Sequence record: OR992646 | Reading direction: 5' to 3' (one strand) | Origin: Escherichia phage ET-SD-TH | Length of the DNA: 33,119 nucleotides | In this document: one piece after another, positions 1,050 through 20,326 of the stretch | Position numbering within the stretch: position 1 is the stretch's first letter | Layout of the letters: every line of letters begins with the position of its first letter | Notes under the pieces: generated by a model | Database searches by the model: none | What the model was told of the DNA's origin: nothing | Seen by the model: the letters and a program-made list of their open reading frames with translations, nothing else | Position numbers and translations under genes: made by a program

Positions 1050-2204
1050 TTATTTTTCTTCGATGACATGGCCAGGGCCATCATCGCCTTCGTTAATGTC
1101 CTTTTCTTCGATCACGTGCCCTGGACCATCATCGTCAGGAGGGTCGCTTTCTTGCGGCTTCCTGCGCTCGATGATTTGCACCTTTGGTTCTTCTTCGCTG
1201 TTCGGCTTCGTTGCTTCCACGTCGCACGAATAACCGTTGTCATCCAGCCTGTGATCTGCGCGGGTAATCAGCCATTCGCCATCAATGCCATCACGGAACT
1301 CAACCAGCACCAGCTTGCATTCTGCGGCAATGGTAGGGTCACCGGGCAGCGTCACGGCAACAGTCACCTGGTTGCGCTGACGCTTCGACAGTTCGGCTTT
1401 GGCGGCGTCCAGCGCCATTGCCTGCGTTGGGTAGTATTTGCCAATCCGTTTGACCGGCTCCCCTTCGCCCACCTTCACTTCGTTGCGCGCTGCCTTCTTC
1501 GTCACCTGGTAGTAAGCCACCACCGTGCCTGCGTTTTCGCGCTTCTGGCTGGTTAGCCGGAATGCGGTGCAATCCTGCGCCGTCAGCGTTATGGTTGGCA
1601 GTTCTTCGCCGCTGGCCGTCTTACCTTCGCCGCGCTTCGTGACCGTGATTTTGCCGCCTGATGGTTTCACTACGCCGTCATATTTCTTGGCCAGTCGCAG
1701 CAACAGGTTCAGGTCAGATTCATCGGCCTGGTCAGTGTGGGGCAGGGTGATTTTGGCCATGCTTTCTGACACGGCTGATTCCATGCCGTGTTCTTCGGCA
1801 ATCTTCTTCACCATGTCGCCAAACTTCGTGCCTTTGGTCCAGCTACGTGATTTTTGCGTTTGCAGGTCGGTTTTGCCGCCCTTTGACTTGTCATAGGTGG
1901 CAGCTCTCGCCCTGATTGTCATGGTGCCTGGCCAGCCAGCCAGTTCCACTTCATCACAGATGAACAAGCCCATGCGCTGTGTCCAGTTATCATAACCCAG
2001 GAACAGTTCCAGTTCTGCGCCTGTTTCCGGCATCTGGATTGGGTTGGCCGGTTCATCATCGGCAAGGCTTATTTCCAGCGTGTCAGATTCCAGCCCTACG
2101 CCGTCAGACAGACTAAGGCTTATCAGGCGTTCATTGATTTTGGCGGTGATGTCATCGCCGTTGGCCAGCACGCGAAACGCTGGCGCAATCCCTGTTAATC
2201 CCAC
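1050..2204 (-). CDS. phage tail protein D (P2 gpD-like, late control D family)
   Basis: 384-aa ORF; N-terminus MGLTGIAPAFRVLANGDDITAKINERLISLSLSD matches the gpD family; sits after U and X as in P2-type tail modules; C-terminus carries a tandem DDGPGHVIEEK repeat. Confidence 0.85.
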   Translation of the reverse strand: MGLTGIAPAFRVLANGDDITAKINERLISLSLSDGVGLESDTLEISLADDEPANPIQMPETGAELELFLGYDNWTQRMGLFICDEVELAGWPGTMTIRARAATYDKSKGGKTDLQTQKSRSWTKGTKFGDMVKKIAEEHGMESAVSESMAKITLPHTDQADESDLNLLLRLAKKYDGVVKPSGGKITVTKRGEGKTASGEELPTITLTAQDCTAFRLTSQKRENAGTVVAYYQVTKKAARNEVKVGEGEPVKRIGKYYPTQAMALDAAKAELSKRQRNQVTVAVTLPGDPTIAAECKLVLVEFRDGIDGEWLITRADHRLDDNGYSCDVEATKPNSEEEPKVQIIERRKPQESDPPDDDGPGHVIEEKDINEGDDGPGHVIEEK

Positions 2205-2404
2205 AATTTCACCCCCTGCGTGGTCGCTGGCGTCGTGATTTCAGGCAGGTTGATGACCAGGCCAGCAGGCAGCACAGGTCCACGGTCTGCCAACCCTTTG
2301 TTGGCGTCCAGCAGTGCTTCCACGGTGCCAGCGTCCTGGTTTCCGTAGTATTTCCAGGCGATGTAATCCGCCGTGTCACCGTCTTTGGTAATGTAAGTTT
2401 GCAT
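2195..2404 (-). CDS. phage tail protein X (P2 gpX-like)
   Basis: 69-aa ORF MQTYITKDGDTADYIAWKYYGNQDAGTVEALLDANKGLADRGPVLPAG resembles P2 gpX; start overlaps the U stop, end overlaps the D start. Confidence 0.8.
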   Translation of the reverse strand: MQTYITKDGDTADYIAWKYYGNQDAGTVEALLDANKGLADRGPVLPAGLVINLPEITTPATTQGVKLWD

Positions 2405-2814
2405 CAGTTGAACCGCCGCAGTTGCAAATTGAATTCCTGTTTGCGCGGCGCACCGAACGCGGCAAACAATGATTGTTTTTCGTCAATGGCTTCAATCACC
2501 CAGCGGCCCCACAGCTTGCCCAGGCCGTCCACCAGCAACAGCGGCTGACCACGGCCAGCCATGCTGCGCATTTGCTCCACCTGCTGAAACCCGCCACGGT
2601 ATTCAGGGTAAATGATGCCAGCCAGGGTGATGGTTTCCTCTCCGATGCCCACGAATTGCGATGATGGTCGCTGGCCAAAGCGGTGCTGCGATGGCCACTT
2701 ATATTCGCTGTGGCGGTTCAGTTCCTGATATGCCGCAGTAAGGATGCAGAACTGGAAGCCGCCCAACATCATCATGATGTTGGTCTGCCCGGTTAAAATC
2801 GTGAAACTGGTCAT
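2404..2814 (-). CDS. phage tail protein U (P2 gpU-like)
   Basis: Contains MMMLGGFQF...SEYKWPSQHRFGQRPSSQFVG...LLLVDGLGKLWGRWVI...PRKQEFNLQLRRF, matching gpU; ATGA start/stop overlap with the tape measure gene (ATG 2814-2812, TGA 2813-2811) with GGAG upstream. An alternative start at the MMM run (2775) is possible. Confidence 0.8.
   Translation of the reverse strand: MTSFTILTGQTNIMMMLGGFQFCILTAAYQELNRHSEYKWPSQHRFGQRPSSQFVGIGEETITLAGIIYPEYRGGFQQVEQMRSMAGRGQPLLLVDGLGKLWGRWVIEAIDEKQSLFAAFGAPRKQEFNLQLRRFN
2465..2477. repeat. 13-bp palindrome AACAATGATTGTT (copy 2 of 3), inside the U coding region
   Basis: Exact sequence read at 2465-2477. Confidence 0.4.
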
Positions 2815-5150
2815 GGTGCCGTCACTCCGTCATTCATCATGCTGCGCTGCCGCACCTGGCGGCGGCGCTCCTGTTCGTCGGCAATACGTTTGGCCAGGTC
2901 TGTGGTGTTCTCACCAGGGCGCTGCACGATCTGCATCGTAGTTTGGCTGTTGTCCTGGTAGGTACTGCCTCCACGGTTAGCCAGTGCCGGTGCTGGCAAT
3001 GCGCTTGCTGGTGTCTGCGGTGTCGCCAGAGTGTTTCCTTCCGGCACGTCATCACCGCCGAACGGGTTTCTGAAAAAGTCTTTTGTTGACTCCCACGCGC
3101 TGCCAGCCATGTCAGAAACGCTGTTTTTGAAATCAATTGCTTTTTGCGTCAGTGCGCCAATGTTGTCAGAAACCCAAATGATCTTATCAATCAGGAACTG
3201 AATTGGCCCCAACACAAAATCAATGCCTGCGGCAAGCGCCTTGCCGAACTTCTGGCCAGCGTCACCGGCCTTTTTCAGTTCTTCGCTGCTGTAGCTCACC
3301 GGTTCTGCCAGTTTTGTGAACCAATCCCACACCTTACCAGCAACGTCAGCAACCCACTGGAACGCGGTTTTGACTGGTCCTAACTTATCCCACAGCGCCT
3401 GGAATTTCTCCGTTACTGGCTGCAACCCTTGCTGGATTCCCTGCAAAGTGCCGGTCATGAACGCTTTGACGCCAGCCCAATTGCGGTAAATCCACAGGCC
3501 GCCAAGCGCCAGTCCGGTAATCAGGGCACCAATGCCGGTGGAAATGAACGCCGCACCGATGGCGCGCACACCAGCGACAACGGCAGGGATTCCACGCGAT
3601 GCCATGCCCACTAGTCCGCCGTTGGCCACGGTAGCTGCGGCACCCACTGCACGCGAGGAAACCGCCGTCAGCGCCATCTGTGCGCGGGCACCAGCCAGGG
3701 CACCTACAACACGAAGCGCACCACCACGCAGGTACGTGAACGCGAAGCCAGCAGCAAACGTGGCAATGCGCATGGTAATCAGTGCGCCAGCCGTGGCTAC
3801 AATGGCTTTGGTGACAACCGGGTGCGCTTGCGCCAGTTCTGTAACCTTGCCAATCCACGGACTAATGGTTTTCAGGACGCTGTTGAATGCTGGAAGCAGC
3901 ACGCTGCCAATAGTGATACCAAGTGCGGTGATCTGGTTTCGGAATATTACCAGTTCGTTTGCCGTTGTTGCGGCCCGTGCCTGGTATTCTTTTTCCATAG
4001 AACCGGCATATTTCATTTTGTTCGCTACAGCGTCAAAATTCTTTTCCAGTTCCTTGATGTTCGTCAGCAATGGCGCAATTGAACCAACAACCTCTTTGCC
4101 AAAAAGCTGCGTCAGAACCGCTGACTGTTCGTGTTTCCGCAGTTTTGCAACCTGCTTGAGAATGACAAGCATGGTTTTTTTGGAGTCCCGTTGCATGGAT
4201 TTTGCAACTGCTGTTGAGGAATAGCCAAGCCGTGCGAATGCTTCTCGCTGCGATTTTGCTTTACCCGCCGTCAGTGACAGCATCAGGTTTTTGATACCAG
4301 TGGCGGCAATCTCGTTTTGCACACCCATGCCGCGCAGTGTCGCACCAAGTGCGGCAATTTCACCGGAAGCAGTACCGGCAACCTCGCCAAGTGGCCCGAT
4401 GCGCTGCACGATCTCCATGATGTCTTTGGCTGATGCGGCAGTGTTATTGCCCAGGTAGTTGATTTTGTCAGCCAGGGCGACAACCTGTTGCTGGTTCATC
4501 TTGAACGCAGAGCGCATCTCTGCCATCGCCTGGCCTGCCTGGTCGGCGGTGATGTCGAACGCCACGCCCATTTTGATGGCTGATTCCGCAAACGTCATCA
4601 GATCTTTGGCTGCAATGCCAGACTGACCACCAGCGGCAACGATCTTGCCAATGTCGTTGGCAGTCATCGGCAGAACTTTTGACATGTTGATAATGTCCTG
4701 CCCCATCTTTTTGAACCCGTCAGGCGTGTCGAAATCAACAACCTTTTTCACGTCAGCCATCGTTGATTCAAAATCAATCGCTGCTTTGACGGGTGCGGCA
4801 ATAGTGGCACCCAGGGCGATGGTGCCCATTATGCCGCTTTTGTATTCTTCGCGCTTATCAAGATTTCGCTGGCGTGCATCCTCCACACGTTTCAGGCGTT
4901 CGGTGGCGGTGCGAAGTTTGTCCACCGCAGCGACGTTTGCGGCATATTTGGCGCGCAGTGAATCAACGTTTTTGCCCTGGCGGCCAAACGTCTGTATGGC
5001 GTTGGTTAGCGTGCGTTGCTCGCGTTCCAGTTTGGCCATTGCCGAGCCAACCTGTTCCACAGATGATTTGACGGTGCCAAATGCGCCTTTAAGGCTGCTT
5101 GAAACTGCCCCGCCTATCGTGATCGTTGCATTGAGCTTCTTATTTGCCAT
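2811..5150 (-). CDS. phage tail tape measure protein (P2 gpT-like)
   Basis: 779-aa ORF rich in Ala/Gly with long helical segments and hydrophobic glycine-rich central stretches; positioned directly after the E/E' chaperone pair; ATG at 5150-5148. Confidence 0.85.
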   Translation of the reverse strand: MANKKLNATITIGGAVSSSLKGAFGTVKSSVEQVGSAMAKLEREQRTLTNAIQTFGRQGKNVDSLRAKYAANVAAVDKLRTATERLKRVEDARQRNLDKREEYKSGIMGTIALGATIAAPVKAAIDFESTMADVKKVVDFDTPDGFKKMGQDIINMSKVLPMTANDIGKIVAAGGQSGIAAKDLMTFAESAIKMGVAFDITADQAGQAMAEMRSAFKMNQQQVVALADKINYLGNNTAASAKDIMEIVQRIGPLGEVAGTASGEIAALGATLRGMGVQNEIAATGIKNLMLSLTAGKAKSQREAFARLGYSSTAVAKSMQRDSKKTMLVILKQVAKLRKHEQSAVLTQLFGKEVVGSIAPLLTNIKELEKNFDAVANKMKYAGSMEKEYQARAATTANELVIFRNQITALGITIGSVLLPAFNSVLKTISPWIGKVTELAQAHPVVTKAIVATAGALITMRIATFAAGFAFTYLRGGALRVVGALAGARAQMALTAVSSRAVGAAATVANGGLVGMASRGIPAVVAGVRAIGAAFISTGIGALITGLALGGLWIYRNWAGVKAFMTGTLQGIQQGLQPVTEKFQALWDKLGPVKTAFQWVADVAGKVWDWFTKLAEPVSYSSEELKKAGDAGQKFGKALAAGIDFVLGPIQFLIDKIIWVSDNIGALTQKAIDFKNSVSDMAGSAWESTKDFFRNPFGGDDVPEGNTLATPQTPASALPAPALANRGGSTYQDNSQTTMQIVQRPGENTTDLAKRIADEQERRRQVRQRSMMNDGVTAP

Positions 5151-5156
5151 TTATTT

Positions 5157-5566
5157 TTAAGCCTTCGGCAATCCTTCCAACCACCACACAAAGCGGGAAA
5201 CCCGCAACCTTTGAATTTCCGATAACTGCCAGCCCGTATGACTTGCGAGCGCCAAAGCGCCCGCGCGTATGTATTCCGGGCTTAATCTAAAAAACTGATG
5301 TAGGCAGCCTGTAGGCGCTTATAGTCTTTCAGAGGCAGGCGGCGGATGTCATCAGGTGCCTGTTCACACAGGTTGGCAAACGTCTGGATTTCGCGCGCAG
5401 CATCGCTGCCGCCCATGTCGCTTGCAATTTCCTGGTCAGCCACGGTTGGTTCACGCATACGCAGCACGGAAACGTCAACGCCTGCGATTTTCAGTGGTCG
5501 TGACAGGGTGATGTCACAGTGGCCGGTTTCGTTGTTGAATTTCAGGTAATCAGGTAATTTCGCCAT
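5157..5566 (-). CDS. tail assembly chaperone E+E' (predicted -1 frameshift product)
   Basis: After the slippery heptamer TTTTTTA (5294..5288) the -1 frame stays open for 43 codons (RLSPEYIRAGALALASHTGWQLSEIQRLRVSRFVWWLEGLPKA) and stops at TAA 5159..5157, 6 nt before the tape measure ATG. It fills the otherwise non-coding 5151-5281 gap exactly as in P2 E/E' and lambda G/GT. Confidence 0.5.
5282..5566 (-). CDS. tail assembly chaperone E (P2 gpE-like)
   Basis: 94-aa ORF MAKLPDYLKFNNETGHCDITLSRPLKIAGVDVSVLRMREPTVADQE..., matching the gpE family; located between tube and tape measure genes. Confidence 0.75.
   Translation of the reverse strand: MAKLPDYLKFNNETGHCDITLSRPLKIAGVDVSVLRMREPTVADQEIASDMGGSDAAREIQTFANLCEQAPDDIRRLPLKDYKRLQAAYISFLD
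5288..5294 (-). other. putative -1 programmed ribosomal frameshift slippery site TTTTTTA (X_XXY_YYZ) at the end of gene E
   Basis: Minus-strand sequence ATC AGT TTT TTA GAT TAA; heptamer T_TTT_TTA lies 1 codon before the E stop. Confidence 0.5.
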
Positions 5567-5580
5567 TTCTTATCGCCTTA

Positions 5581-5593
5581 AACAATGATTGTT
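5581..5593. repeat. 13-bp palindrome AACAATGATTGTT (copy 3 of 3), 15-28 nt upstream of the E start
   Basis: Exact sequence read at 5581-5593. Confidence 0.45.
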
Positions 5594-5599
5594 GAAAAT

Positions 5600-5619
5600 G
5601 GCCAGCCAAATGACTGGCC
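5600..5619 (-). terminator. terminator-like hairpin between tube and E genes (possible attenuator)
   Basis: GGCCAG-N8-CTGGCC stem (5600-5605 / 5614-5619) directly after the tube stop; followed on the minus strand by AUUUUCAACAAUCAUUGUUU. Confidence 0.3.
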
Positions 5620-5626
5620 GTAAAAA

Positions 5627-6133
5627 TTACATCGCCAGCGCGGAACGGATGGCGGCCAGGGTGTCTACACCGTTGATGATGCGCACCATGTTTTCCACGT
5701 CGATTTCGTGGATGGTCTTTCCGTTATGCTGCTGCTTGAAATAGTTCAGGCTGACAGTCACGTTAAGGGAACTTAATTCCCCAGGCGTCCAGGTGCCTGG
5801 CTCCATGCTGGTGATTTTGCCGCGCATGTTCATGACAACGCCTTTCACGCTGCCATCATAGGATTCCAGCGCACCGCGAAACGTCAGCGGAACGCTTGCG
5901 CCTTCTGACAGGCCAAACAGCGCCAACACGTCAGAATCATAGGCACGCAGCGCAAAACTTGCCTCCAGCTTTTCCATGCCCAACGTCACATCAATGGGCG
6001 CGTCCATGCCGCCTGCGCGGAATTCTTCGGTTTGCAGGGTTAAGGTGGGCGGCGTGACGCTCTCCACCTGGCCCGCGTAACCACGGCCATCAACAAATAA
6101 GTTGATGTTTTTCAAAACGTCACGTGCGGCCAT
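5627..6133 (-). CDS. phage tail tube protein (P2 FII-like)
   Basis: 168-aa [46 protein letters not shown]..., matching the contractile-tail tube family; its ATG (6133-6131) overlaps the sheath stop by 1 nt (TAATG). Confidence 0.85.
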   Translation of the reverse strand: MAARDVLKNINLFVDGRGYAGQVESVTPPTLTLQTEEFRAGGMDAPIDVTLGMEKLEASFALRAYDSDVLALFGLSEGASVPLTFRGALESYDGSVKGVVMNMRGKITSMEPGTWTPGELSSLNVTVSLNYFKQQHNGKTIHEIDVENMVRIINGVDTLAAIRSALAM

Positions 6134-7557
6134 TATTCGAATACCTCACTAATATAATCGTTGGTCAACTGGCTGCGGAAGATAATGTGTTCAGCCGGAT
6201 AAACAGGCGTGAAATCAAAATCAAAGTATACCTTACCGTCAGCGATCTGGTCAGCAGTATTTAAGTCAGGGTCAGCCCAACACGTGCCGCCAAGAATTGC
6301 GCCAAGGCTCACCAGGTTGCGCAGGTACGCGTTCACGCCTTCAATCACGTCATTGACGTATTGTTTGGTGATGCCACGGTCTACGGCCCACAGGTGTGCA
6401 CGCAGCAGGCTGTCATTGATGATGTCAGCCGTGCGAACAACGCACAGGAACGCCCATTTCGGATCGCTGGAAGTGGTGCGGTTGCCCCACAGGCGGAAAC
6501 CATCCTGGCGAATGATGGTGGTGACTTCGTTTTCGTTCAGCAGGTTTGCACGGCTGGACGTATCACCCAGGGTGAAATCAATGGTTCTGGCCGTGCCCTG
6601 AATGCCATAGATTTCCTGGTTTGATGGTGACCACCAGAAACCGCGCTCGTTGTCGATGCGGGCAATCAGGCCAGCCACGCGCGGCGATGCCCAATCAGTA
6701 ATCGTGGTGCCATCTTCGTCAAGCACCAGCACTTTTGGGTCAACCACATAAACGCGCTTGCTGCCAAAGTCTTTGCGGTAGGCGATGGCGTCAGCGTCGT
6801 TGGTGTTAGGGCCGTCAGCGATGATGACAGCACGCAGGCGGTTGGCGATGCCAAGCAGTTCAGAAACCACGGCATTGGCTGCAACGCCAACGGATGCGGT
6901 TGCAGTTGCGCCGGTGCCGTTTCCGCCAGTGATGGCTACGGTTGGCGCGCTGGTGTAACCCATGCCGGAATTGGTGACGGTGATTTTGGTGATGACTCCA
7001 CCAACCACAGTGGCTTCCGCAGTTGCGCCAGAACCGCCGCCACCAGTCAGTGTGACTGTCGGTGCCGTGGTGTAGCCGCTGCCGCCATTGCCAATGGTGA
7101 TAGCTGTGACGCCATCCTGAACGCGGGTATGCGTGAATCCAGGCACGCACAGAATGCGAGGCGAGTAGCCAACAACGGATTCAGCGCCAAGCAGTGCGTG
7201 AACGCCTTCATATTTGCCGGTTGATGCGTTAACACCTCCCATGATGTTGGCCAGTGTTGCTGCTTCTTCTTCTCCTTCTTCAACGCGCACAACGATAACT
7301 ACCGCGCCGATCTGGTCCAGGATGGCATCCAGTGCTTTTGGCAGTGTGCCTTCACCGGTTCCAAGTAGGTCCAGTTTAGCCGCTTCTCGCTGGCTGCCAG
7401 CAATCAGGGTAGGGGTGTTAATCGGGAATGCGTCAGGGTCGGCATTCGGCGCTGTGCCTACAATGCCAATGACGCTGGATTTAACGGTTTGAATGACGCG
7501 TGAACCGGAATCAATTTCCAGCACCTCCACGCCATGTAAGAACTCAGTACCTGCCAT
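6133..7557 (-). CDS. phage tail sheath protein (P2 FI-like) with internal repeat-containing insertion
   Basis: 474 aa from ATG 7557-7555 to TAA 6135-6133; N-terminus [54 protein letters not shown] and C-terminal ...[26 protein letters not shown]... follow the FI sheath pattern. The supplied ORF continues into the N run only as an artefact. Confidence 0.9.
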
Positions 7558-7574
7558 TATTCGGTTTCCTATTG

Positions 7575-7588
7575 ACTGTGCACACAGT
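7575..7588. promoter_or_regulatory. inverted repeat ACTGTG-CA-CACAGT in the sheath 5' leader; candidate late-promoter operator
   Basis: Read directly at 7575-7588, 18-31 nt upstream of the sheath ATG; further CACTG copies at 7598-7602 and 7616-7620 (minus-strand orientation). Confidence 0.3.
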
Positions 7589-7649
7589 GAAAATTCGCAG
7601 TGTGATGGTCGCAGGAACAGTGCGTGGCTTCTTCTTGGGGTTTGTCCGT

Positions 7650-7673
7650 AAAAAAAGCCCGCGTGATGCGGGC
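7650..7673 (-). terminator. intrinsic terminator upstream of the sheath gene
   Basis: Minus-strand RNA GCCCGC-AUCA-(C)GCGGGC followed by UUUUUUU (plus-strand A run 7650-7656, stem 7657-7673). Confidence 0.6.
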
Positions 7674-10600
7674 AAAGGCGACAAATCAGTAACNNNNNNN
7701 NNNNNNNNNNNNNNNNNNNNNNNNNNNNNNNNNNNNNNNNNNNNNNNNNNNNNNNNNNNNNNNNNNNNNNNNNNNNNNNNNNNNNNNNNNNNNNNNNNNN
7801 NNNNNNNNNNNNNNNNNNNNNNNNNNNNNNNNNNNNNNNNNNNNNNNNNNNNNNNNNNNNNNNNNNNNNNNNNNNNNNNNNNNNNNNNNNNNNNNNNNNN
7901 NNNNNNNNNNNNNNNNNNNNNNNNNNNNNNNNNNNNNNNNNNNNNNNNNNNNNNNNNNNNNNNNNNNNNNNNNNNNNNNNNNNNNNNNNNNNNNNNNNNN
8001 NNNNNNNNNNNNNNNNNNNNNNNNNNNNNNNNNNNNNNNNNNNNNNNNNNNNNNNNNNNNNNNNNNNNNNNNNNNNNNNNNNNNNNNNNNNNNNNNNNNN
8101 NNNNNNNNNNNNNNNNNNNNNNNNNNNNNNNNNNNNNNNNNNNNNNNNNNNNNNNNNNNNNNNNNNNNNNNNNNNNNNNNNNNNNNNNNNNNNNNNNNNN
8201 NNNNNNNNNNNNNNNNNNNNNNNNNNNNNNNNNNNNNNNNNNNNNNNNNNNNNNNNNNNNNNNNNNNNNNNNNNNNNNNNNNNNNNNNNNNNNNNNNNNN
8301 NNNNNNNNNNNNNNNNNNNNNNNNNNNNNNNNNNNNNNNNNNNNNNNNNNNNNNNNNNNNNNNNNNNNNNNNNNNNNNNNNNNNNNNNNNNNNNNNNNNN
8401 NNNNNNNNNNNNNNNNNNNNNNNNNNNNNNNNNNNNNNNNNNNNNNNNNNNNNNNNNNNNNNNNNNNNNNNNNNNNNNNNNNNNNNNNNNNNNNNNNNNN
8501 NNNNNNNNNNNNNNNNNNNNNNNNNNNNNNNNNNNNNNNNNNNNNNNNNNNNNNNNNNNNNNNNNNNNNNNNNNNNNNNNNNNNNNNNNNNNNNNNNNNN
8601 NNNNNNNNNNNNNNNNNNNNNNNNNNNNNNNNNNNNNNNNNNNNNNNNNNNNNNNNNNNNNNNNNNNNNNNNNNNNNNNNNNNNNNNNNNNNNNNNNNNN
8701 NNNNNNNNNNNNNNNNNNNNNNNNNNNNNNNNNNNNNNNNNNNNNNNNNNNNNNNNNNNNNNNNNNNNNNNNNNNNNNNNNNNNNNNNNNNNNNNNNNNN
8801 NNNNNNNNNNNNNNNNNNNNNNNNNNNNNNNNNNNNNNNNNNNNNNNNNNNNNNNNNNNNNNNNNNNNNNNNNNNNNNNNNNNNNNNNNNNNNNNNNNNN
8901 NNNNNNNNNNNNNNNNNNNNNNNNNNNNNNNNNNNNNNNNNNNNNNNNNNNNNNNNNNNNNNNNNNNNNNNNNNNNNNNNNNNNNNNNNNNNNNNNNNNN
9001 NNNNNNNNNNNNNNNNNNNNNNNNNNNNNNNNNNNNNNNNNNNNNNNNNNNNNNNNNNNNNNNNNNNNNNNNNNNNNNNNNNNNNNNNNNNNNNNNNNNN
9101 NNNNNNNNNNNNNNNNNNNNNNNNNNNNNNNNNNNNNNNNNNNNNNNNNNNNNNNNNNNNNNNNNNNNNNNNNNNNNNNNNNNNNNNNNNNNNNNNNNNN
9201 NNNNNNNNNNNNNNNNNNNNNNNNNNNNNNNNNNNNNNNNNNNNNNNNNNNNNNNNNNNNNNNNNNNNNNNNNNNNNNNNNNNNNNNNNNNNNNNNNNNN
9301 NNNNNNNNNNNNNNNNNNNNNNNNNNNNNNNNNNNNNNNNNNNNNNNNNNNNNNNNNNNNNNNNNNNNNNNNNNNNNNNNNNNNNNNNNNNNNNNNNNNN
9401 NNNNNNNNNNNNNNNNNNNNNNNNNNNNNNNNNNNNNNNNNNNNNNNNNNNNNNNNNNNNNNNNNNNNNNNNNNNNNNNNNNNNNNNNNNNNNNNNNNNN
9501 NNNNNNNNNNNNNNNNNNNNNNNNNNNNNNNNNNNNNNNNNNNNNNNNNNNNNNNNNNNNNNNNNNNNNNNNNNNNNNNNNNNNNNNNNNNNNNNNNNNN
9601 NNNNNNNNNNNNNNNNNNNNNNNNNNNNNNNNNNNNNNNNNNNNNNNNNNNNNNNNNNNNNNNNNNNNNNNNNNNNNNNNNNNNNNNNNNNNNNNNNNNN
9701 NNNNNNNNNNNNNNNNNNNNNNNNNNNNNNNNNNNNNNNNNNNNNNNNNNNNNNNNNNNNNNNNNNNNNNNNNNNNNNNNNNNNNNNNNNNNNNNNNNNN
9801 NNNNNNNNNNNNNNNNNNNNNNNNNNNNNNNNNNNNNNNNNNNNNNNNNNNNNNNNNNNNNNNNNNNNNNNNNNNNNNNNNNNNNNNNNNNNNNNNNNNN
9901 NNNNNNNNNNNNNNNNNNNNNNNNNNNNNNNNNNNNNNNNNNNNNNNNNNNNNNNNNNNNNNNNNNNNNNNNNNNNNNNNNNNNNNNNNNNNNNNNNNNN
10001 NNNNNNNNNNNNNNNNNNNNNNNNNNNNNNNNNNNNNNNNNNNNNNNNNNNNNNNNNNNNNNNNNNNNNNNNNNNNNNNNNNNNNNNNNNNNNNNNNNNN
10101 NNNNNNNNNNNNNNNNNNNNNNNNNNNNNNNNNNNNNNNNNNNNNNNNNNNNNNNNNNNNNNNNNNNNNNNNNNNNNNNNNNNNNNNNNNNNNNNNNNNN
10201 NNNNNNNNNNNNNNNNNNNNNNNNNNNNNNNNNNNNNNNNNNNNNNNNNNNNNNNNNNNNNNNNNNNNNNNNNNNNNNNNNNNNNNNNNNNNNNNNNNNN
10301 NNNNNNNNNNNNNNNNNNNNNNNNNNNNNNNNNNNNNNNNNNNNNNNNNNNNNNNNNNNNNNNNNNNNNNNNNNNNNNNNNNNNNNNNNNNNNNNNNNNN
10401 NNNNNNNNNNNNNNNNNNNNNNNNNNNNNNNNNNNNNNNNNNNNNNNNNNNNNNNNNNNNNNNNNNNNNNNNNNNNNNNNNNNNNNNNNNNNNNNNNNNN
10501 NNNNNNNNNNNNNNNNNNNNNNNNNNNNNNNNNNNNNNNNNNNNNNNNNNNNNNNNNNNNNNNNNNNNNNNNNNNNNNNNNNNNNNNNNNNNNNNNNNNN

Positions 10601-12750
10601 NNNNNNNNNNNNNNNNNNNNNNNNNNNNNNNNNNNNNNNNNNNNNNNNNNNNNNNNNNNNNNNNNNNNNNNNNNNNNNNNNNNNNNNNNNNNNNNNNNNN
10701 NNNNNNNNNNNNNNNNNNNNNNNNNNNNNNNNNNNNNNNNNNNNNNNNNNNNNNNNNNNNNNNNNNNNNNNNNNNNNNNNNNNNNNNNNNNNNNNNNNNN
10801 NNNNNNNNNNNNNNNNNNNNNNNNNNNNNNNNNNNNNNNNNNNNNNNNNNNNNNNNNNNNNNNNNNNNNNNNNNNNNNNNNNNNNNNNNNNNNNNNNNNN
10901 NNNNNNNNNNNNNNNNNNNNNNNNNNNNNNNNNNNNNNNNNNNNNNNNNNNNNNNNNNNNNNNNNNNNNNNNNNNNNNNNNNNNNNNNNNNNNNNNNNNN
11001 NNNNNNNNNNNNNNNNNNNNNNNNNNNNNNNNNNNNNNNNNNNNNNNNNNNNNNNNNNNNNNNNNNNNNNNNNNNNNNNNNNNNNNNNNNNNNNNNNNNN
11101 NNNNNNNNNNNNNNNNNNNNNNNNNNNNNNNNNNNNNNNNNNNNNNNNNNNNNNNNNNNNNNNNNNNNNNNNNNNNNNNNNNNNNNNNNNNNNNNNNNNN
11201 NNNNNNNNNNNNNNNNNNNNNNNNNNNNNNNNNNNNNNNNNNNNNNNNNNNNNNNNNNNNNNNNNNNNNNNNNNNNNNNNNNNNNNNNNNNNNNNNNNNN
11301 NNNNNNNNNNNNNNNNNNNNNNNNNNNNNNNNNNNNNNNNNNNNNNNNNNNNNNNNNNNNNNNNNNNNNNNNNNNNNNNNNNNNNNNNNNNNNNNNNNNN
11401 NNNNNNNNNNNNNNNNNNNNNNNNNNNNNNNNNNNNNNNNNNNNNNNNNNNNNNNNNNNNNNNNNNNNNNNNNNNNNNNNNNNNNNNNNNNNNNNNNNNN
11501 NNNNNNNNNNNNNNNNNNNNNNNNNNNNNNNNNNNNNNNNNNNNNNNNNNNNNNNNNNNNNNNNNNNNNNNNNNNNNNNNNNNNNNNNNNNNNNNNNNNN
11601 NNNNNNNNNNNNNNNNNNNNNNNNNNNNNNNNNNNNNNNNNNNNNNNNNNNNNNNNNNNNNNNNNNNNNNNNNNNNNNNNNNNNNNNNNNNNNNNNNNNN
11701 NNNNNNNNNNNNNNNNNNNNNNNNNNNNNNNNNNNNNNNNNNNNNNNNNNNNNNNNNNNNNNNNNNNNNNNNNNNNNNNNNNNNNNNNNNNNNNNNNNNN
11801 NNNNNNNNNNNNNNNNNNNNNNNNNNNNNNNNNNNNNNNNNNNNNNNNNNNNNNNNNNNNNNNNNNNNNNNNNNNNNNNNNNNNNNNNNNNNNNNNNNNN
11901 NNNNNNNNNNNNNNNNNNNNNNNNNNNNNNNNNNNNNNNNNNNNNNNNNNNNNNNNNNNNNNNNNNNNNNNNNNNNNNNNNNNNNNNNNNNNNNNNNNNN
12001 NNNNNNNNNNNNNNNNNNNNNNNNNNNNNNNNNNNNNNNNNNNNNNNNNNNNNNNNNNNNNNNNNNNNNNNNNNNNNNNNNNNNNNNNNNNNNNNNNNNN
12101 NNNNNNNNNNNNNNNNNNNNNNNNNNNNNNNNNNNNNNNNNNNNNNNNNNNNNNNNNNNNNNNNNNNNNNNNNNNNNNNNNNNNNNNNNNNNNNNNNNNN
12201 NNNNNNNNNNNNNNNNNNNNNNNNNNNNNNNNNNNNNNNNNNNNNNNNNNNNNNNNNNNNNNNNNNNNNNNNNNNNNNNNNNNNNNNNNNNNNNNNNNNN
12301 NNNNNNNNNNNNNNNNNNNNNNNNNNNNNNNNNNNNNNNNNNNNNNNNNNNNNNNNNNNNNNNNNNNNNNNNNNNNNNNNNNNNNNNNNNNNNNNNNNNN
12401 NNNNNNNNNNNNNNNNNNNNNNNNNNNNNNNNNNNNNNNNNNNNNNNNNNNNNNNNNNNNNNNNNNNNNNNNNNNNNNNNNNNNNNNNNNNNNNNNNNNN
12501 NNNNNNNNNNNNNNNNNNNNNNNNNNNNNNNNNNNNNNNNNNNNNNNNNNNNNNNNNNNNNNNNNNNNNNNNNNNNNNNNNNNNNNNNNNNNNNNNNNNN
12601 NNNNNNNNNNNNNNNNNNNNNNNNNNNNNNNNNNNNNNNNNNNNNNNNNNNNNNNNNNNNNNNNNNNNNNNNNNNNNNNNNNNNNNNNNNNNNNNNNNNN
12701 NNNNNNNNNNNNNNNNNNNNNNNNNNNNNNNNNNNNNNNNNNNNNNNNNN

Positions 12751-12947
12751 TCTGCACGCCTGGCTGATGCAAAGCGCGATACAGGCCAGACATCGTGACA
12801 TCATAGCCAATGCGGCGCTGGCCTTCGGCATAAGCCGCCACGGCGTCAAACGCGGCCTGGCGCACCACTTCTGAATCAGGGCCAGGCAGCAGGGTTAATT
12901 CTGCGCTGATGGCGTAGGTGATAATCTGCGCGGAACGAACTTCAACG
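12751..12947 (-). CDS. baseplate J-like protein fragment (both ends masked)
   Basis: Only 197 nt visible; minus-frame translation VEVRSAQIITYAISAELTLLPGPDSEVVRQAAFDAVAAYAEGQRRIGYDVTMSGLYRALHQPGVQ resembles baseplate J (gpJ) family sequence; position upstream of the sheath fits P2 order. Confidence 0.35.
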
Positions 12948-15900
12948 NNNNNNNNNNNNNNNNNNNNNNNNNNNNNNNNNNNNNNNNNNNNNNNNNNNNN
13001 NNNNNNNNNNNNNNNNNNNNNNNNNNNNNNNNNNNNNNNNNNNNNNNNNNNNNNNNNNNNNNNNNNNNNNNNNNNNNNNNNNNNNNNNNNNNNNNNNNNN
13101 NNNNNNNNNNNNNNNNNNNNNNNNNNNNNNNNNNNNNNNNNNNNNNNNNNNNNNNNNNNNNNNNNNNNNNNNNNNNNNNNNNNNNNNNNNNNNNNNNNNN
13201 NNNNNNNNNNNNNNNNNNNNNNNNNNNNNNNNNNNNNNNNNNNNNNNNNNNNNNNNNNNNNNNNNNNNNNNNNNNNNNNNNNNNNNNNNNNNNNNNNNNN
13301 NNNNNNNNNNNNNNNNNNNNNNNNNNNNNNNNNNNNNNNNNNNNNNNNNNNNNNNNNNNNNNNNNNNNNNNNNNNNNNNNNNNNNNNNNNNNNNNNNNNN
13401 NNNNNNNNNNNNNNNNNNNNNNNNNNNNNNNNNNNNNNNNNNNNNNNNNNNNNNNNNNNNNNNNNNNNNNNNNNNNNNNNNNNNNNNNNNNNNNNNNNNN
13501 NNNNNNNNNNNNNNNNNNNNNNNNNNNNNNNNNNNNNNNNNNNNNNNNNNNNNNNNNNNNNNNNNNNNNNNNNNNNNNNNNNNNNNNNNNNNNNNNNNNN
13601 NNNNNNNNNNNNNNNNNNNNNNNNNNNNNNNNNNNNNNNNNNNNNNNNNNNNNNNNNNNNNNNNNNNNNNNNNNNNNNNNNNNNNNNNNNNNNNNNNNNN
13701 NNNNNNNNNNNNNNNNNNNNNNNNNNNNNNNNNNNNNNNNNNNNNNNNNNNNNNNNNNNNNNNNNNNNNNNNNNNNNNNNNNNNNNNNNNNNNNNNNNNN
13801 NNNNNNNNNNNNNNNNNNNNNNNNNNNNNNNNNNNNNNNNNNNNNNNNNNNNNNNNNNNNNNNNNNNNNNNNNNNNNNNNNNNNNNNNNNNNNNNNNNNN
13901 NNNNNNNNNNNNNNNNNNNNNNNNNNNNNNNNNNNNNNNNNNNNNNNNNNNNNNNNNNNNNNNNNNNNNNNNNNNNNNNNNNNNNNNNNNNNNNNNNNNN
14001 NNNNNNNNNNNNNNNNNNNNNNNNNNNNNNNNNNNNNNNNNNNNNNNNNNNNNNNNNNNNNNNNNNNNNNNNNNNNNNNNNNNNNNNNNNNNNNNNNNNN
14101 NNNNNNNNNNNNNNNNNNNNNNNNNNNNNNNNNNNNNNNNNNNNNNNNNNNNNNNNNNNNNNNNNNNNNNNNNNNNNNNNNNNNNNNNNNNNNNNNNNNN
14201 NNNNNNNNNNNNNNNNNNNNNNNNNNNNNNNNNNNNNNNNNNNNNNNNNNNNNNNNNNNNNNNNNNNNNNNNNNNNNNNNNNNNNNNNNNNNNNNNNNNN
14301 NNNNNNNNNNNNNNNNNNNNNNNNNNNNNNNNNNNNNNNNNNNNNNNNNNNNNNNNNNNNNNNNNNNNNNNNNNNNNNNNNNNNNNNNNNNNNNNNNNNN
14401 NNNNNNNNNNNNNNNNNNNNNNNNNNNNNNNNNNNNNNNNNNNNNNNNNNNNNNNNNNNNNNNNNNNNNNNNNNNNNNNNNNNNNNNNNNNNNNNNNNNN
14501 NNNNNNNNNNNNNNNNNNNNNNNNNNNNNNNNNNNNNNNNNNNNNNNNNNNNNNNNNNNNNNNNNNNNNNNNNNNNNNNNNNNNNNNNNNNNNNNNNNNN
14601 NNNNNNNNNNNNNNNNNNNNNNNNNNNNNNNNNNNNNNNNNNNNNNNNNNNNNNNNNNNNNNNNNNNNNNNNNNNNNNNNNNNNNNNNNNNNNNNNNNNN
14701 NNNNNNNNNNNNNNNNNNNNNNNNNNNNNNNNNNNNNNNNNNNNNNNNNNNNNNNNNNNNNNNNNNNNNNNNNNNNNNNNNNNNNNNNNNNNNNNNNNNN
14801 NNNNNNNNNNNNNNNNNNNNNNNNNNNNNNNNNNNNNNNNNNNNNNNNNNNNNNNNNNNNNNNNNNNNNNNNNNNNNNNNNNNNNNNNNNNNNNNNNNNN
14901 NNNNNNNNNNNNNNNNNNNNNNNNNNNNNNNNNNNNNNNNNNNNNNNNNNNNNNNNNNNNNNNNNNNNNNNNNNNNNNNNNNNNNNNNNNNNNNNNNNNN
15001 NNNNNNNNNNNNNNNNNNNNNNNNNNNNNNNNNNNNNNNNNNNNNNNNNNNNNNNNNNNNNNNNNNNNNNNNNNNNNNNNNNNNNNNNNNNNNNNNNNNN
15101 NNNNNNNNNNNNNNNNNNNNNNNNNNNNNNNNNNNNNNNNNNNNNNNNNNNNNNNNNNNNNNNNNNNNNNNNNNNNNNNNNNNNNNNNNNNNNNNNNNNN
15201 NNNNNNNNNNNNNNNNNNNNNNNNNNNNNNNNNNNNNNNNNNNNNNNNNNNNNNNNNNNNNNNNNNNNNNNNNNNNNNNNNNNNNNNNNNNNNNNNNNNN
15301 NNNNNNNNNNNNNNNNNNNNNNNNNNNNNNNNNNNNNNNNNNNNNNNNNNNNNNNNNNNNNNNNNNNNNNNNNNNNNNNNNNNNNNNNNNNNNNNNNNNN
15401 NNNNNNNNNNNNNNNNNNNNNNNNNNNNNNNNNNNNNNNNNNNNNNNNNNNNNNNNNNNNNNNNNNNNNNNNNNNNNNNNNNNNNNNNNNNNNNNNNNNN
15501 NNNNNNNNNNNNNNNNNNNNNNNNNNNNNNNNNNNNNNNNNNNNNNNNNNNNNNNNNNNNNNNNNNNNNNNNNNNNNNNNNNNNNNNNNNNNNNNNNNNN
15601 NNNNNNNNNNNNNNNNNNNNNNNNNNNNNNNNNNNNNNNNNNNNNNNNNNNNNNNNNNNNNNNNNNNNNNNNNNNNNNNNNNNNNNNNNNNNNNNNNNNN
15701 NNNNNNNNNNNNNNNNNNNNNNNNNNNNNNNNNNNNNNNNNNNNNNNNNNNNNNNNNNNNNNNNNNNNNNNNNNNNNNNNNNNNNNNNNNNNNNNNNNNN
15801 NNNNNNNNNNNNNNNNNNNNNNNNNNNNNNNNNNNNNNNNNNNNNNNNNNNNNNNNNNNNNNNNNNNNNNNNNNNNNNNNNNNNNNNNNNNNNNNNNNNN

Positions 15901-18793
15901 NNNNNNNNNNNNNNNNNNNNNNNNNNNNNNNNNNNNNNNNNNNNNNNNNNNNNNNNNNNNNNNNNNNNNNNNNNNNNNNNNNNNNNNNNNNNNNNNNNNN
16001 NNNNNNNNNNNNNNNNNNNNNNNNNNNNNNNNNNNNNNNNNNNNNNNNNNNNNNNNNNNNNNNNNNNNNNNNNNNNNNNNNNNNNNNNNNNNNNNNNNNN
16101 NNNNNNNNNNNNNNNNNNNNNNNNNNNNNNNNNNNNNNNNNNNNNNNNNNNNNNNNNNNNNNNNNNNNNNNNNNNNNNNNNNNNNNNNNNNNNNNNNNNN
16201 NNNNNNNNNNNNNNNNNNNNNNNNNNNNNNNNNNNNNNNNNNNNNNNNNNNNNNNNNNNNNNNNNNNNNNNNNNNNNNNNNNNNNNNNNNNNNNNNNNNN
16301 NNNNNNNNNNNNNNNNNNNNNNNNNNNNNNNNNNNNNNNNNNNNNNNNNNNNNNNNNNNNNNNNNNNNNNNNNNNNNNNNNNNNNNNNNNNNNNNNNNNN
16401 NNNNNNNNNNNNNNNNNNNNNNNNNNNNNNNNNNNNNNNNNNNNNNNNNNNNNNNNNNNNNNNNNNNNNNNNNNNNNNNNNNNNNNNNNNNNNNNNNNNN
16501 NNNNNNNNNNNNNNNNNNNNNNNNNNNNNNNNNNNNNNNNNNNNNNNNNNNNNNNNNNNNNNNNNNNNNNNNNNNNNNNNNNNNNNNNNNNNNNNNNNNN
16601 NNNNNNNNNNNNNNNNNNNNNNNNNNNNNNNNNNNNNNNNNNNNNNNNNNNNNNNNNNNNNNNNNNNNNNNNNNNNNNNNNNNNNNNNNNNNNNNNNNNN
16701 NNNNNNNNNNNNNNNNNNNNNNNNNNNNNNNNNNNNNNNNNNNNNNNNNNNNNNNNNNNNNNNNNNNNNNNNNNNNNNNNNNNNNNNNNNNNNNNNNNNN
16801 NNNNNNNNNNNNNNNNNNNNNNNNNNNNNNNNNNNNNNNNNNNNNNNNNNNNNNNNNNNNNNNNNNNNNNNNNNNNNNNNNNNNNNNNNNNNNNNNNNNN
16901 NNNNNNNNNNNNNNNNNNNNNNNNNNNNNNNNNNNNNNNNNNNNNNNNNNNNNNNNNNNNNNNNNNNNNNNNNNNNNNNNNNNNNNNNNNNNNNNNNNNN
17001 NNNNNNNNNNNNNNNNNNNNNNNNNNNNNNNNNNNNNNNNNNNNNNNNNNNNNNNNNNNNNNNNNNNNNNNNNNNNNNNNNNNNNNNNNNNNNNNNNNNN
17101 NNNNNNNNNNNNNNNNNNNNNNNNNNNNNNNNNNNNNNNNNNNNNNNNNNNNNNNNNNNNNNNNNNNNNNNNNNNNNNNNNNNNNNNNNNNNNNNNNNNN
17201 NNNNNNNNNNNNNNNNNNNNNNNNNNNNNNNNNNNNNNNNNNNNNNNNNNNNNNNNNNNNNNNNNNNNNNNNNNNNNNNNNNNNNNNNNNNNNNNNNNNN
17301 NNNNNNNNNNNNNNNNNNNNNNNNNNNNNNNNNNNNNNNNNNNNNNNNNNNNNNNNNNNNNNNNNNNNNNNNNNNNNNNNNNNNNNNNNNNNNNNNNNNN
17401 NNNNNNNNNNNNNNNNNNNNNNNNNNNNNNNNNNNNNNNNNNNNNNNNNNNNNNNNNNNNNNNNNNNNNNNNNNNNNNNNNNNNNNNNNNNNNNNNNNNN
17501 NNNNNNNNNNNNNNNNNNNNNNNNNNNNNNNNNNNNNNNNNNNNNNNNNNNNNNNNNNNNNNNNNNNNNNNNNNNNNNNNNNNNNNNNNNNNNNNNNNNN
17601 NNNNNNNNNNNNNNNNNNNNNNNNNNNNNNNNNNNNNNNNNNNNNNNNNNNNNNNNNNNNNNNNNNNNNNNNNNNNNNNNNNNNNNNNNNNNNNNNNNNN
17701 NNNNNNNNNNNNNNNNNNNNNNNNNNNNNNNNNNNNNNNNNNNNNNNNNNNNNNNNNNNNNNNNNNNNNNNNNNNNNNNNNNNNNNNNNNNNNNNNNNNN
17801 NNNNNNNNNNNNNNNNNNNNNNNNNNNNNNNNNNNNNNNNNNNNNNNNNNNNNNNNNNNNNNNNNNNNNNNNNNNNNNNNNNNNNNNNNNNNNNNNNNNN
17901 NNNNNNNNNNNNNNNNNNNNNNNNNNNNNNNNNNNNNNNNNNNNNNNNNNNNNNNNNNNNNNNNNNNNNNNNNNNNNNNNNNNNNNNNNNNNNNNNNNNN
18001 NNNNNNNNNNNNNNNNNNNNNNNNNNNNNNNNNNNNNNNNNNNNNNNNNNNNNNNNNNNNNNNNNNNNNNNNNNNNNNNNNNNNNNNNNNNNNNNNNNNN
18101 NNNNNNNNNNNNNNNNNNNNNNNNNNNNNNNNNNNNNNNNNNNNNNNNNNNNNNNNNNNNNNNNNNNNNNNNNNNNNNNNNNNNNNNNNNNNNNNNNNNN
18201 NNNNNNNNNNNNNNNNNNNNNNNNNNNNNNNNNNNNNNNNNNNNNNNNNNNNNNNNNNNNNNNNNNNNNNNNNNNNNNNNNNNNNNNNNNNNNNNNNNNN
18301 NNNNNNNNNNNNNNNNNNNNNNNNNNNNNNNNNNNNNNNNNNNNNNNNNNNNNNNNNNNNNNNNNNNNNNNNNNNNNNNNNNNNNNNNNNNNNNNNNNNN
18401 NNNNNNNNNNNNNNNNNNNNNNNNNNNNNNNNNNNNNNNNNNNNNNNNNNNNNNNNNNNNNNNNNNNNNNNNNNNNNNNNNNNNNNNNNNNNNNNNNNNN
18501 NNNNNNNNNNNNNNNNNNNNNNNNNNNNNNNNNNNNNNNNNNNNNNNNNNNNNNNNNNNNNNNNNNNNNNNNNNNNNNNNNNNNNNNNNNNNNNNNNNNN
18601 NNNNNNNNNNNNNNNNNNNNNNNNNNNNNNNNNNNNNNNNNNNNNNNNNNNNNNNNNNNNNNNNNNNNNNNNNNNNNNNNNNNNNNNNNNNNNNNNNNNN
18701 NNNNNNNNNNNNNNNNNNNNNNNNNNNNNNNNNNNNNNNNNNNNNNNNNNNNNNNNNNNNNNNNNNNNNNNNNNNNNNNNNNNNNNNNNNNNN

Positions 18794-20326
18794 TTGCTGC
18801 CCCATTAACAGTTGTTTATCCATGCCCATGCTTTGCATGACCAGTTTTTCCGCCATTTCGCGGCTGATACCGTGCTGCGTGTACGCCTCAATCATGCGCG
18901 CCACGTCGCTGGCGGTTTCCTTCCAAACGGTGTCAGGGTCGCTGCCACCTTCACGGATGATGCGGCCAGGCGATTGCAGCATGTTGTTTTTGGACCGTTC
19001 AGCGGCTGCCACGTCAGATGACGGGTCAATCCAGGCCCAACGGCGTGGCTGCCATTCAATATCGCTGTAGCGGTCGATGCGTTCCGGTTTCAGGCTTCGG
19101 CCTTTAACGGTGATGCGACCAGCAAGCAGGGCACGCGGCAACCATGCTTCAAAAACGGGTTGATGCAGGTTTTCAATCAACCATTCCTGCAATTCTTTCC
19201 AGTTTTCGCGGCTGTCTAGCGTTCCCTGGCGGATTGAACTGAAATTGACGCCTTCCAGGTCGCTGGCAAGGTCATTGTACGGAACGCCCATACCGGACGC
19301 CATGCCGCGCAGCATTTGTTTGGTGAACACGGCAAATTCGCCGTTGGGGTACTGTGGCGACCAGTCTTTGACGCGTGCGCCCTGTGGCAGCACCTGGAAT
19401 TCACCCGGTTCACTGTCAATGATCAGTTCGTCATCATCTTCAAACTCAGGACCAGCGGAATTTTCATCCCATTCGATGAATCCCATTTTGTTGGCGCCGG
19501 CGCGTGCGTTGACCAGCGCGGCTTCTTCCATGCCGCCCAGGTGGCGCATACGAAACAGGCTGGTGGCCATCCACGGCAGACCGCGTTTCTGTCCAACCAT
19601 GTCATCAAGGAAGCCGTGAAGGATTTCATCAGCGGGGATGCGCACGAAATCACGCCCGGACCAACGGTAGTTATCATCGGATTCATCAACGGTGCTGAAA
19701 TAGTACGCAATAGGCCGCCCGTAGCGGTTAAACTCGATGCCCTGGCGGATGAAATTTCCGTTATTCAGACGATCTTCAACCATGTCCACAGGGCAGCGTT
19801 GCGGGTCCAACAGTTGCAGCGCAAAGCCCCACGGACCGGCATCGGCACCGAACACCAGGCGCACGAAGAATTCACCATCTTTAGCCGCGCTGTTGACGCA
19901 GGCAGCCTGGATGGCTCTCCAGGACAGCTTCCCGGTCACGTCGCAGTTTGACTTGTGCCCCCACTTATCGAAGGCAGTTTCAATGGCTTCGTTGGCAAGG
20001 GTGTCCAGTTTCCCGGTGTTGTCAGTGCTTTTGGCCTGCAACAGAACGCCTTTTGGCCCAACAATATTGTTGCGGCACAGGCGCAGGAATTTTTTGGCGT
20101 AATCGTTATTGGCGGCCTGTTCGCGGGAACGGGCCACCAGGATGCGTTGATTTTTGTTGATTACCTCGTCAGCCGTCAGCGGCTGTGTGCCCCACGCGGT
20201 GCCCAACCGGTCAACACTGGCACCGGTAAACATGCGGGAAGCCAGGCGGTTAAGCGGTAAACGCCGCGTGCGCGGCTGTTGTGCATGTTCGGCAGGCTTA
20301 TTTCTGGTAAATGGCCACAGTTTCAT
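18794..20326 (-). CDS. phage portal protein, lambda gpB family (3' end masked)
   Basis: ATG at 20326-20324; 511 visible codons with ...FTKQMLRGMASGMGVPYNDLASDLEGVNFSSIRQG... similar to lambda gpB; directly follows the terminase large subunit and gpW-like gene. Confidence 0.85.

Follow-up and report, generated by a model that had tools for sequence, protein, structure and literature searches.

A probable -1 ribosomal frameshift extending the tail assembly chaperone E of the Jilinvirus Escherichia phage ET-SD-TH

Does the stretch of 131 nucleotides (nt) that separates the stop codon of the tail assembly chaperone gene E from the ATG of the tape measure gene in Escherichia phage ET-SD-TH encode protein and, if so, how would ribosomes reach it? 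The locus lies in a window of 33,119 nt from this phage (sequence record OR992646; one strand, read 5' to 3'), for which an earlier note had proposed a -1 programmed frameshift that makes an E+E' tail chaperone. Gene E, the shift site, the E' frame and the flanking tube and tape measure genes are all located on the minus strand, a detail that the earlier note had left out. Judged from comparative sequence data, a -1 programmed ribosomal frameshift on a run of U residues very probably gives a minor E+E' product of 136 amino acids (aa) beside the major 94-aa E, and a probability of roughly nine in ten is assigned to this reading. The proposal is upheld by the membership of E in PF10109, the gene context, a -1 peptide that is conserved among homologues and the annotation of a related genome, that of Achromobacter phage Mano. 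The elements of the site are as follows.

5282..5566, minus strand: gene E, a 94-aa tail assembly chaperone and the zero-frame product, ending ...YISFLD* (PF10109 Phage_TAC_7, E=1.8e-18)
5288..5294, minus strand: slippery heptamer T_TTT_TTA, the proposed -1 shift site, in the X_XXY_YYZ register of the E frame (in-frame heptamer scan)
5291..5294, minus strand: tetramer T_TTT, the last base of AGT plus the Phe codon, invariant in the family as T_TTY
5282..5284, minus strand: E stop TAA, two codons past the Phe codon in 27/27 homologues
5157..5288, minus strand: predicted E' extension in the -1 frame, 43 codons RLSPEYIRAGALALASHTGWQLSEIQRLRVSRFVWWLEGLPKA followed by TAA 5159-5157 (translation and conservation)
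5231..5282, minus strand: predicted RNA stem-loop, candidate stimulator, -26.8 kcal/mol

Gene E starts with the ATG at 5566 and stops with the TAA at 5284-5282, its final codons being ...TAC ATC AGT TTT TTA GAT TAA. The heptamer T_TTT_TTA can be read directly at 5294-5288 in the frame of E and, as the earlier note had it, a single codon (GAT) stands between it and the stop. Translation likewise confirms the -1 frame as open for 43 codons: the sense codons of E' run from AGA (5288-5286) through GCT (5162-5160), its TAA occupies 5159-5157, and six nucleotides (AAATAA) separate this stop from the tape measure ATG at 5150. Two of the earlier counts have to be amended. The gap that E' fills, given as 130 nt, is one nucleotide longer than stated (its minus strand has no open reading frame (ORF) of 40 aa or more that begins with a start codon); and the predicted E+E' fusion comprises 136 aa (approximately 15.4 kDa), not about 137 aa. 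Upstream, the -1 frame is closed by the TAA at 5321-5319 and open from 5318, which confines the shift to the final 11 codons of E, where the T-run is the sole slippery motif. In-frame heptamers of the X_XXY_YYZ type are rare in the neighbourhood, being found at 4 of 2023 codon positions in six tail genes.

In the mechanism that we infer, as regards the slip and how efficient it is, the part played by the hairpin, the function of E' and the E+E' product, most ribosomes would translate E to the TAA and release the 94-aa tail assembly chaperone. A minority would slip back by one nucleotide on UUUUUUA (5294-5288), one or two codons short of the E stop, read 43 more codons in the -1 frame and terminate the 136-aa E+E' product 6 nt before the tape measure start. 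The transfer RNA (tRNA) for Phe would re-pair from UUU to UUU, either alone on U_UUY or together with tRNA-Leu on U_UUU_UUA. Both routes would lead to 136 aa, the sole difference being residue 93 (F or L). The stem-loop at 5282-5231, which starts 5-8 nt downstream, probably makes slipping more frequent. If the two products work as those of lambda G/GT and P2 E/E+E' do, the E portion common to both would cover the tape measure protein and E' would bring in the tube protein, with the frameshift setting the ratio between the two products.

That E' is coding can be judged by comparison with relatives. The sample comprised 40 viral-contig loci that encode relatives of E (32-96% identity) together with GenBank phages, and the alignment of the site and E' held 27 distinct homologues with E 35-96% identical to that of the window. 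Homologues with a closed -1 frame downstream of E, named in the earlier note as the contrary finding to look for, were sought; in essentially all loci with E at least 35% identical the frame proved open for 39-47 codons past the E stop, and it ends a few nucleotides from the tape measure start or overlaps it. The -1 peptide follows the consensus xRLSxxYIRxGxLALASHTGWxxxEIxxMRxSRFxWWLEGLP, which is kept even at 35-60% E identity, and residues L13, L15, A16, G20, W21 and L41 of E' are invariant. Translation of the +1 frame past the E stop shows no conservation across homologues. Among the 27 sequences, the pairwise nucleotide difference at -1-frame codon positions 1, 2 and 3 is 0.34, 0.26 and 0.60, respectively. 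The most variable position upstream of the site is the third base of the E frame, and downstream it is the third base of the -1 frame (0.59 vs 0.20 and 0.29). Both the peptide conservation and the -1-frame periodicity start directly at the Phe codon. Phage Alux-21 (L047, locus 640-790) is approximately 92% identical to the window through E; its nucleotides then diverge sharply and heavily right after the E stop, and its E' peptide is the same.

With regard to a start of its own, E' has no ATG in the -1 ORF and no conserved start column in the E' alignment. A fused E-E' ORF was absent from the 120 best database homologues of the fusion, all of which are 81-102 aa long and correspond to E only, so no lineage among them has fused both frames. 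The conserved -1 peptide, the bias between codon positions and the lack of a separate start argue together that E' is translated and can be reached only from E. On these patterns, the -1 frame is assessed as protein-coding, under purifying selection and without a start of its own.

The shift site has been compared across the same 27 homologues. T_TTY, the last base of the preceding codon plus the Phe codon, is the only invariant shift element (27/27); alignment columns T6, T7 and T8 are invariant, and Phe is encoded by TTT in 24 sequences and by TTC in three. The zero-frame stop lies exactly two codons past the Phe codon in every one of them (TGA in 18, TAA in 8, TAG in 1). A canonical heptamer with Phe in the aminoacyl (A) site occurs in 17/27 (14 G_GGT_TTT and 3 A_AAT_TTT), T_TTT_TTN one codon downstream occurs in 5/27, three of which carry both registers, and the remaining 8/27 have the tetramer only, with no canonical heptamer in either register. 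The fixed position of the stop forces the overlapping Leu codon of the -1 frame to end in A or G and the next -1-frame codon to begin with A (G in the TAG case). This fixed stop may be part of the signal, or the length of E may be constrained.

The T_TTT_TTA of the window sits one codon downstream of the register used by the family. Within Jilinvirus, the genus to which the window belongs, two versions of the site (window 5282-5299) differ by several linked substitutions: PT1, Bas97 and ECOO78 have GTA AAT TTT ATC GAC TAA, and the window, ECO1230-10, ep3 and Alux-21 have ATC AGT TTT TTA GAY TAA. A canonical heptamer is kept in the genus but displaced by one codon, which argues that the heptamer named in the earlier note is functional. 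Moreover, the loss of A_AAT_TTT accompanies the gain of T_TTT_TTA, which suggests that selection keeps a full heptamer for tandem slippage, and the experimentally studied site of phage P2 is the equivalent T_TTT_TTG. Both observations speak against the closest alternative, in which the recoding is the same but takes place in the other register, with tRNA-Phe in the A site on U_UUU (5294-5291) and AGU in the peptidyl (P) site, so that the product would read ...ISFFRLS... and not ...ISFLRLS... In favor of that register, T_TTY at this aligned position is the one element that never varies, and the eight homologues without a heptamer must rely on the tetramer. U_UU.U belongs to the three best E. 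coli tetramers given a 3' stimulator (PMC4066793), and the hairpin would then lie 8 nt downstream, within the usual spacing. The alternative register is a serious possibility that is nevertheless placed somewhat below even odds. Work in E. coli with a 3' stimulator present has ranked U_UU.C and U_UU.U as the second and third most shift-prone tetramers, and H_HH.U_UU.Y heptamers are among the most efficient in this host (PMC4066793).

A structure that could stimulate slipping was looked for downstream of the site, and what has emerged is a family-wide excess of structure, with neither a single conserved fold nor covariation. In the window, an outer stem AGCCCG/CGGGCU is predicted around the hairpin GCGGGCGC-UUUG-GCGCUCGC, the stem-loop starting at a distance of 5 nt from TTA, or 8 nt from the Phe codon. 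Across the family, the 73 nt directly 3' of the site have a mean z of -2.66, with 67% of sequences at or below -2, in comparison with a mean z of -0.34 for 291 control windows taken from the E and tape measure genes (Mann-Whitney p=9e-10), and a control by synonymous recoding, in which the E' protein is kept, gives a mean z of -1.73 with 10/27 at or below -2 (Wilcoxon p=2e-5), both p-values being optimistic because the sequences are mutually related. The first helix starts 5-9 nt past the Phe codon in 16/27, and the arms, which pair in three or more different registers, combine codons that directly follow the stop with the invariant Gly-Trp codons. The fold of the window is not kept even within the genus, and a search of region 4900-5700 against Rfam gave no match. 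The downstream stem-loop is probably a frameshift stimulator that would raise the slip frequency.

Several points weigh against a frameshift at this site and have to be set beside the evidence above. No protein evidence for this phage or its subfamily was found in the literature on Jilinvirus and relatives. Of dinucleotide shuffles of the 144 nt at 5294-5151, 10% still have a -1 frame open over 45 codons or more, and in the window itself the +1 frame is likewise open, for 47 codons past the E stop; taken alone, the window sequence supports the frameshift only moderately beyond chance, and an open frame by itself is weak evidence. In the register of the family, the window reads C_AGT_TTT, which is non-canonical and has a P-site codon that cannot re-pair, and U_UUU_UUA is absent from the E. 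coli list of heptamers that shift at >0.10% without stimulators (PMC4066793). The hairpin of the window is modest, at z=-2.2 against dinucleotide shuffles and z=-1.4 against synonymous recodings, and the relatedness of the family sequences tempers the structure statistics as noted. RNAalifold found no consensus structure for the 27 aligned sites; in the same alignment the pairs of the window show no covariation at fixed columns, and 61% are paired, like shuffles. Since consensus fold and covariation are both lacking, the claim is limited to an excess of local structure and does not extend to a conserved fold. Finally, the E' part was recognised neither by PF06528 nor by NCBIfam nor by any solved structure, the fusion protein having been the query in the NCBIfam and PDB sequence searches.

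A different origin of the fusion would be slippage of RNA polymerase on the T6 run, which would add one U to some transcripts, so that E+E' would arise from normal translation of edited messenger RNA. Such fusions are known to arise by transcriptional slippage as well (PMC5009743), and the window does have a homopolymeric run of six T. Most homologues, however, have only four T (GGT TTT ATC and similar), and three have TTTC. Runs of this length are shorter than those known to support productive transcriptional slippage. The element that is conserved is a codon-phased T_TTY, as fits re-pairing of a tRNA, and the excess of RNA structure 5-9 nt downstream fits a ribosomal stimulator; polymerase slippage is considered highly unlikely.

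Even less probable is that E' is a separate small gene with its own start codon and no frameshift. The NCBI pipeline does call P2-type E' as a stand-alone "GpE family phage tail protein" of 35-60 aa, and TTG and GTG codons are present inside the -1 ORF of the window, but the first TTG comes after the conserved RLSPEYIRAGA segment with no Shine-Dalgarno sequence nearby. The lack of an ATG, of a start-bearing ORF of at least 40 aa in the gap and of a conserved start column all stand against a separate gene, and conservation and periodicity begin at the Phe codon rather than at a start codon. It is scarcely credible that the heptamer and the open -1 frame arose by coincidence and that the 131 nt are an untranslated spacer: approximately 10% of shuffles stay open and the +1 frame is open as well, but substitutions are biased to the third position and the peptide is kept at 35-96% E identity as well as in the nucleotide-diverged Alux-21.

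With the -1 ribosomal frameshift as the preferred reading, a more general proposal can be made for this chaperone family, although it is put forward tentatively and regarded as doubtful. Its recoding cassette would consist of a U_UUY tetramer for tRNA-Phe, an obligatory stop two codons on and a strong, evolutionarily fluid 3' hairpin. In such a cassette, ribosomes that have not shifted may terminate at the foot of the downstream helix, and the arms of the hairpin may be formed by the codons just past the stop and by GGC-TGG, the invariant Gly-Trp pair within E'. The half of the heptamer that lies in the P site may be optional, coming and going or hopping by one codon as in the window, and a sister clade may have the same E' module moved to the +1/-2 frame. 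The homologues form a natural series for weighing the P-site half of the heptamer and the nearby stop in bacterial frameshift efficiency: some members have the tetramer alone and others a heptamer in one or the other register, the hairpins vary, and the stop stays in place.

The sister clade is represented by three IMG/VR contigs (L040, L041 and L043; locus ~1690-1880) that share the tube-E-tape measure context and have an E 34% identical to that of the window. An E'-like peptide, NAATLKAAARRLAKETGFSAAEIKAMPFSEMMWWLTD, is found in their +1 frame (equivalent to the -2 frame), and their -1 frame is Arg-rich and interrupted. L040 and L043 differ at three nucleotides in the last nine E codons; none of these changes alters the E protein, which points to a shift at GAC GTN TAA C or close to it.

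The tail genes that surround the locus are listed below.

6133-7557, minus strand: sheath gene (PF04984 / PF17482)
5627..6133, minus strand: tail tube gene, 168 aa, directly upstream of E (PF04985 Phage_tube, E=4.3e-57)
2811..5150, minus strand: tape measure gene, 779 aa, ATG at 5150 (PF10145, E=6.4e-37)
2404-2814, minus strand: gpU (PF06995)
1050-2204, minus strand: gpD (PF05954)

The E protein passes the gathering threshold of PF10109 with 66.8 bits over residues 19-93 (cut-off 25). P2 gpE is also in this family (47.8 bits), the description of which names the chaperones E of P2, 41 of Mu and 14. The E and E' ORFs overlap and are placed between the tube and tape measure genes on the same strand, which is the layout of a tail chaperone cassette. 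In RefSeq, the orthologue of the tape measure protein in ECO1230-10 is named "tail length tape measure protein". The tube protein (PF04985, E=4e-57) is called "head closure" or "connector" in several public records, including NC_027995 ECOPH_gp12, PQ850606 Bas97_0019 and RefSeq P2 FII (NC_001895), and these labels are probably a propagated mis-annotation.

The best match to the window is Escherichia phage vB_EcoM_ECO1230-10 (Jilinvirus, Iiscvirinae), with 95.7% identity over 6.8 kilobases, and ECOO78, ep3, Bas97 and PT1 are 90-94% identical. By these matches, the phage is a Jilinvirus (subfamily Iiscvirinae) and neither P2-like nor a member of Peduoviridae. Phage ep3 (L045, locus ~760 onward) departs from the window where E' ends and the tape measure gene begins; its mosaic junction and that of Alux-21 suggest recombination breakpoints that flank the E' module. 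A megablast search with window positions 5100-5620 gave no hit in any of 5,426 complete E. coli genomes and hence no evidence of a resident prophage copy of this Jilinvirus segment there. An ARAGORN scan of the unmasked window sequence gave no tRNA gene. Runs of N mask positions 755-845, 7694-12750, 12948-18793, 23463-24064, 26274-27017 and 27233-27949 and create spurious giant ORFs on both strands, e.g. 7544-20326 and 6133-12849. The 4260-aa ORF at 7544-20326 has been rejected as an artefact of these runs, the real sheath gene being 6133-7557.

The tail chaperone frameshift is a textbook phenomenon and is already annotated in one related genome (Mano), so the window adds one more lineage to a well-established rule. 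A literature search of published papers on the Jilinvirus group found no mention of an E/E' frameshift, and in the GenBank and RefSeq records examined (ECO1230-10, ep3, PT1, Bas97 and Alux-21) nothing is annotated in the gap of approximately 131 nt. The practical consequence is a correction of annotation, as those records omit a probable essential tail assembly protein. Any engineering of these small E. coli myoviruses has to leave the T-run and the -1 frame as they are, and probably the hairpin downstream as well.

Among known systems, Achromobacter phage Mano, although only distantly related to the window phage, is a close parallel. Its genes CPT_Mano_020/021 (MT708550) are annotated as "tape measure chaperone" and "frameshift product", and the protein family, gene order, E' peptide (SHLSAQYIRQCALGLASHTGWSQAEIMNMRVSRFLWWIDGLP) and shift at the homologous Phe codon are the same as in the window. 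The two differ in that Mano has G_GGT_TTT with Phe in the A site, whereas the window reads C_AGT_TTT at that point and carries its heptamer one codon further on, and in that Mano E' overlaps the tape measure start by 41 nt.

For phage P2, a -1 frameshift at TTTTTTG gives E/E+E' (Christie et al. 2002 as cited in PMC3091744 and PMC5009743). Both phages have the E part in PF10109, the gene order FII-E-E'-T-U-D and an E' that ends at or overlaps the tape measure start; their shift sites are near-identical (GGT TTT TTG in P2 and AGT TTT TTA in the window) and their products similar in size (91/142 aa and 94/136 aa, respectively). The differences are that the E stop lies 6 codons past the heptamer in P2 but 1 codon past it in the window, that a hairpin is predicted in the window and structure is enriched family-wide whereas none is reported for P2 (PMC3091744), and that the window phage is a Jilinvirus (Iiscvirinae) and P2 a Peduovirus. 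The likeness to P2 E/E' drawn by the earlier note thus holds for the E family, gene order and shift site, but not for the phage as a whole, and E' falls outside PF06528. The 43-aa E' had no match to PF06528 at E up to 10 and the fusion none at E up to 0.1, whereas P2 E+E' scores 76.3 bits. Comparison of E' with P2 E', as the earlier note had suggested, gave a weak but consistent hhalign alignment: with 23 E' sequences, the probability was 37% against P2 E' and 33% against 17 P2-type E' (pairwise E 3.5e-4 and 4.6e-4, respectively), and the aligned block was both times ALASHTGWxxSEIxxMxxSRFxWW against DVAVIFHWPPSELYPMSLTELITW. In PHROGs, E' had only a weak match, to phrog_10636 (E=1.4e-3; function unknown).

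In phage Mu, it is a -2 frameshift that yields the tail chaperone pair (Xu et al. 2004 as cited in PMC5009743), and Mu gp41 is among the proteins named in the description of PF10109. In the window, E' lies in the -1 frame, but the sister clade L040, L041 and L043, with its E'-like peptide in the +1 (-2) frame, recalls the arrangement described for Mu.

The lambda G/GT pair follows the same logic and is compared with the window on that basis, not by sequence: two chaperones with a common N-terminal part are encoded between the major tail and tape measure genes, and an infrequent -1 slip close to where the first ORF ends determines the ratio between them (PMC5009743). Lambda differs in having a siphovirus tail. 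Its slippery heptamer, G_GGA_AAG, is a different one, and the extension is far longer than E'. The proportion of G to GT is important for assembly; the region common to both attaches to the tape measure protein, and the part found only in GT to the tube subunit (PMC5009743). The G:GT ratio is approximately 30:1 in lambda, and the frameshift of P2 is 2- to 3-fold more efficient (PMC5009743).

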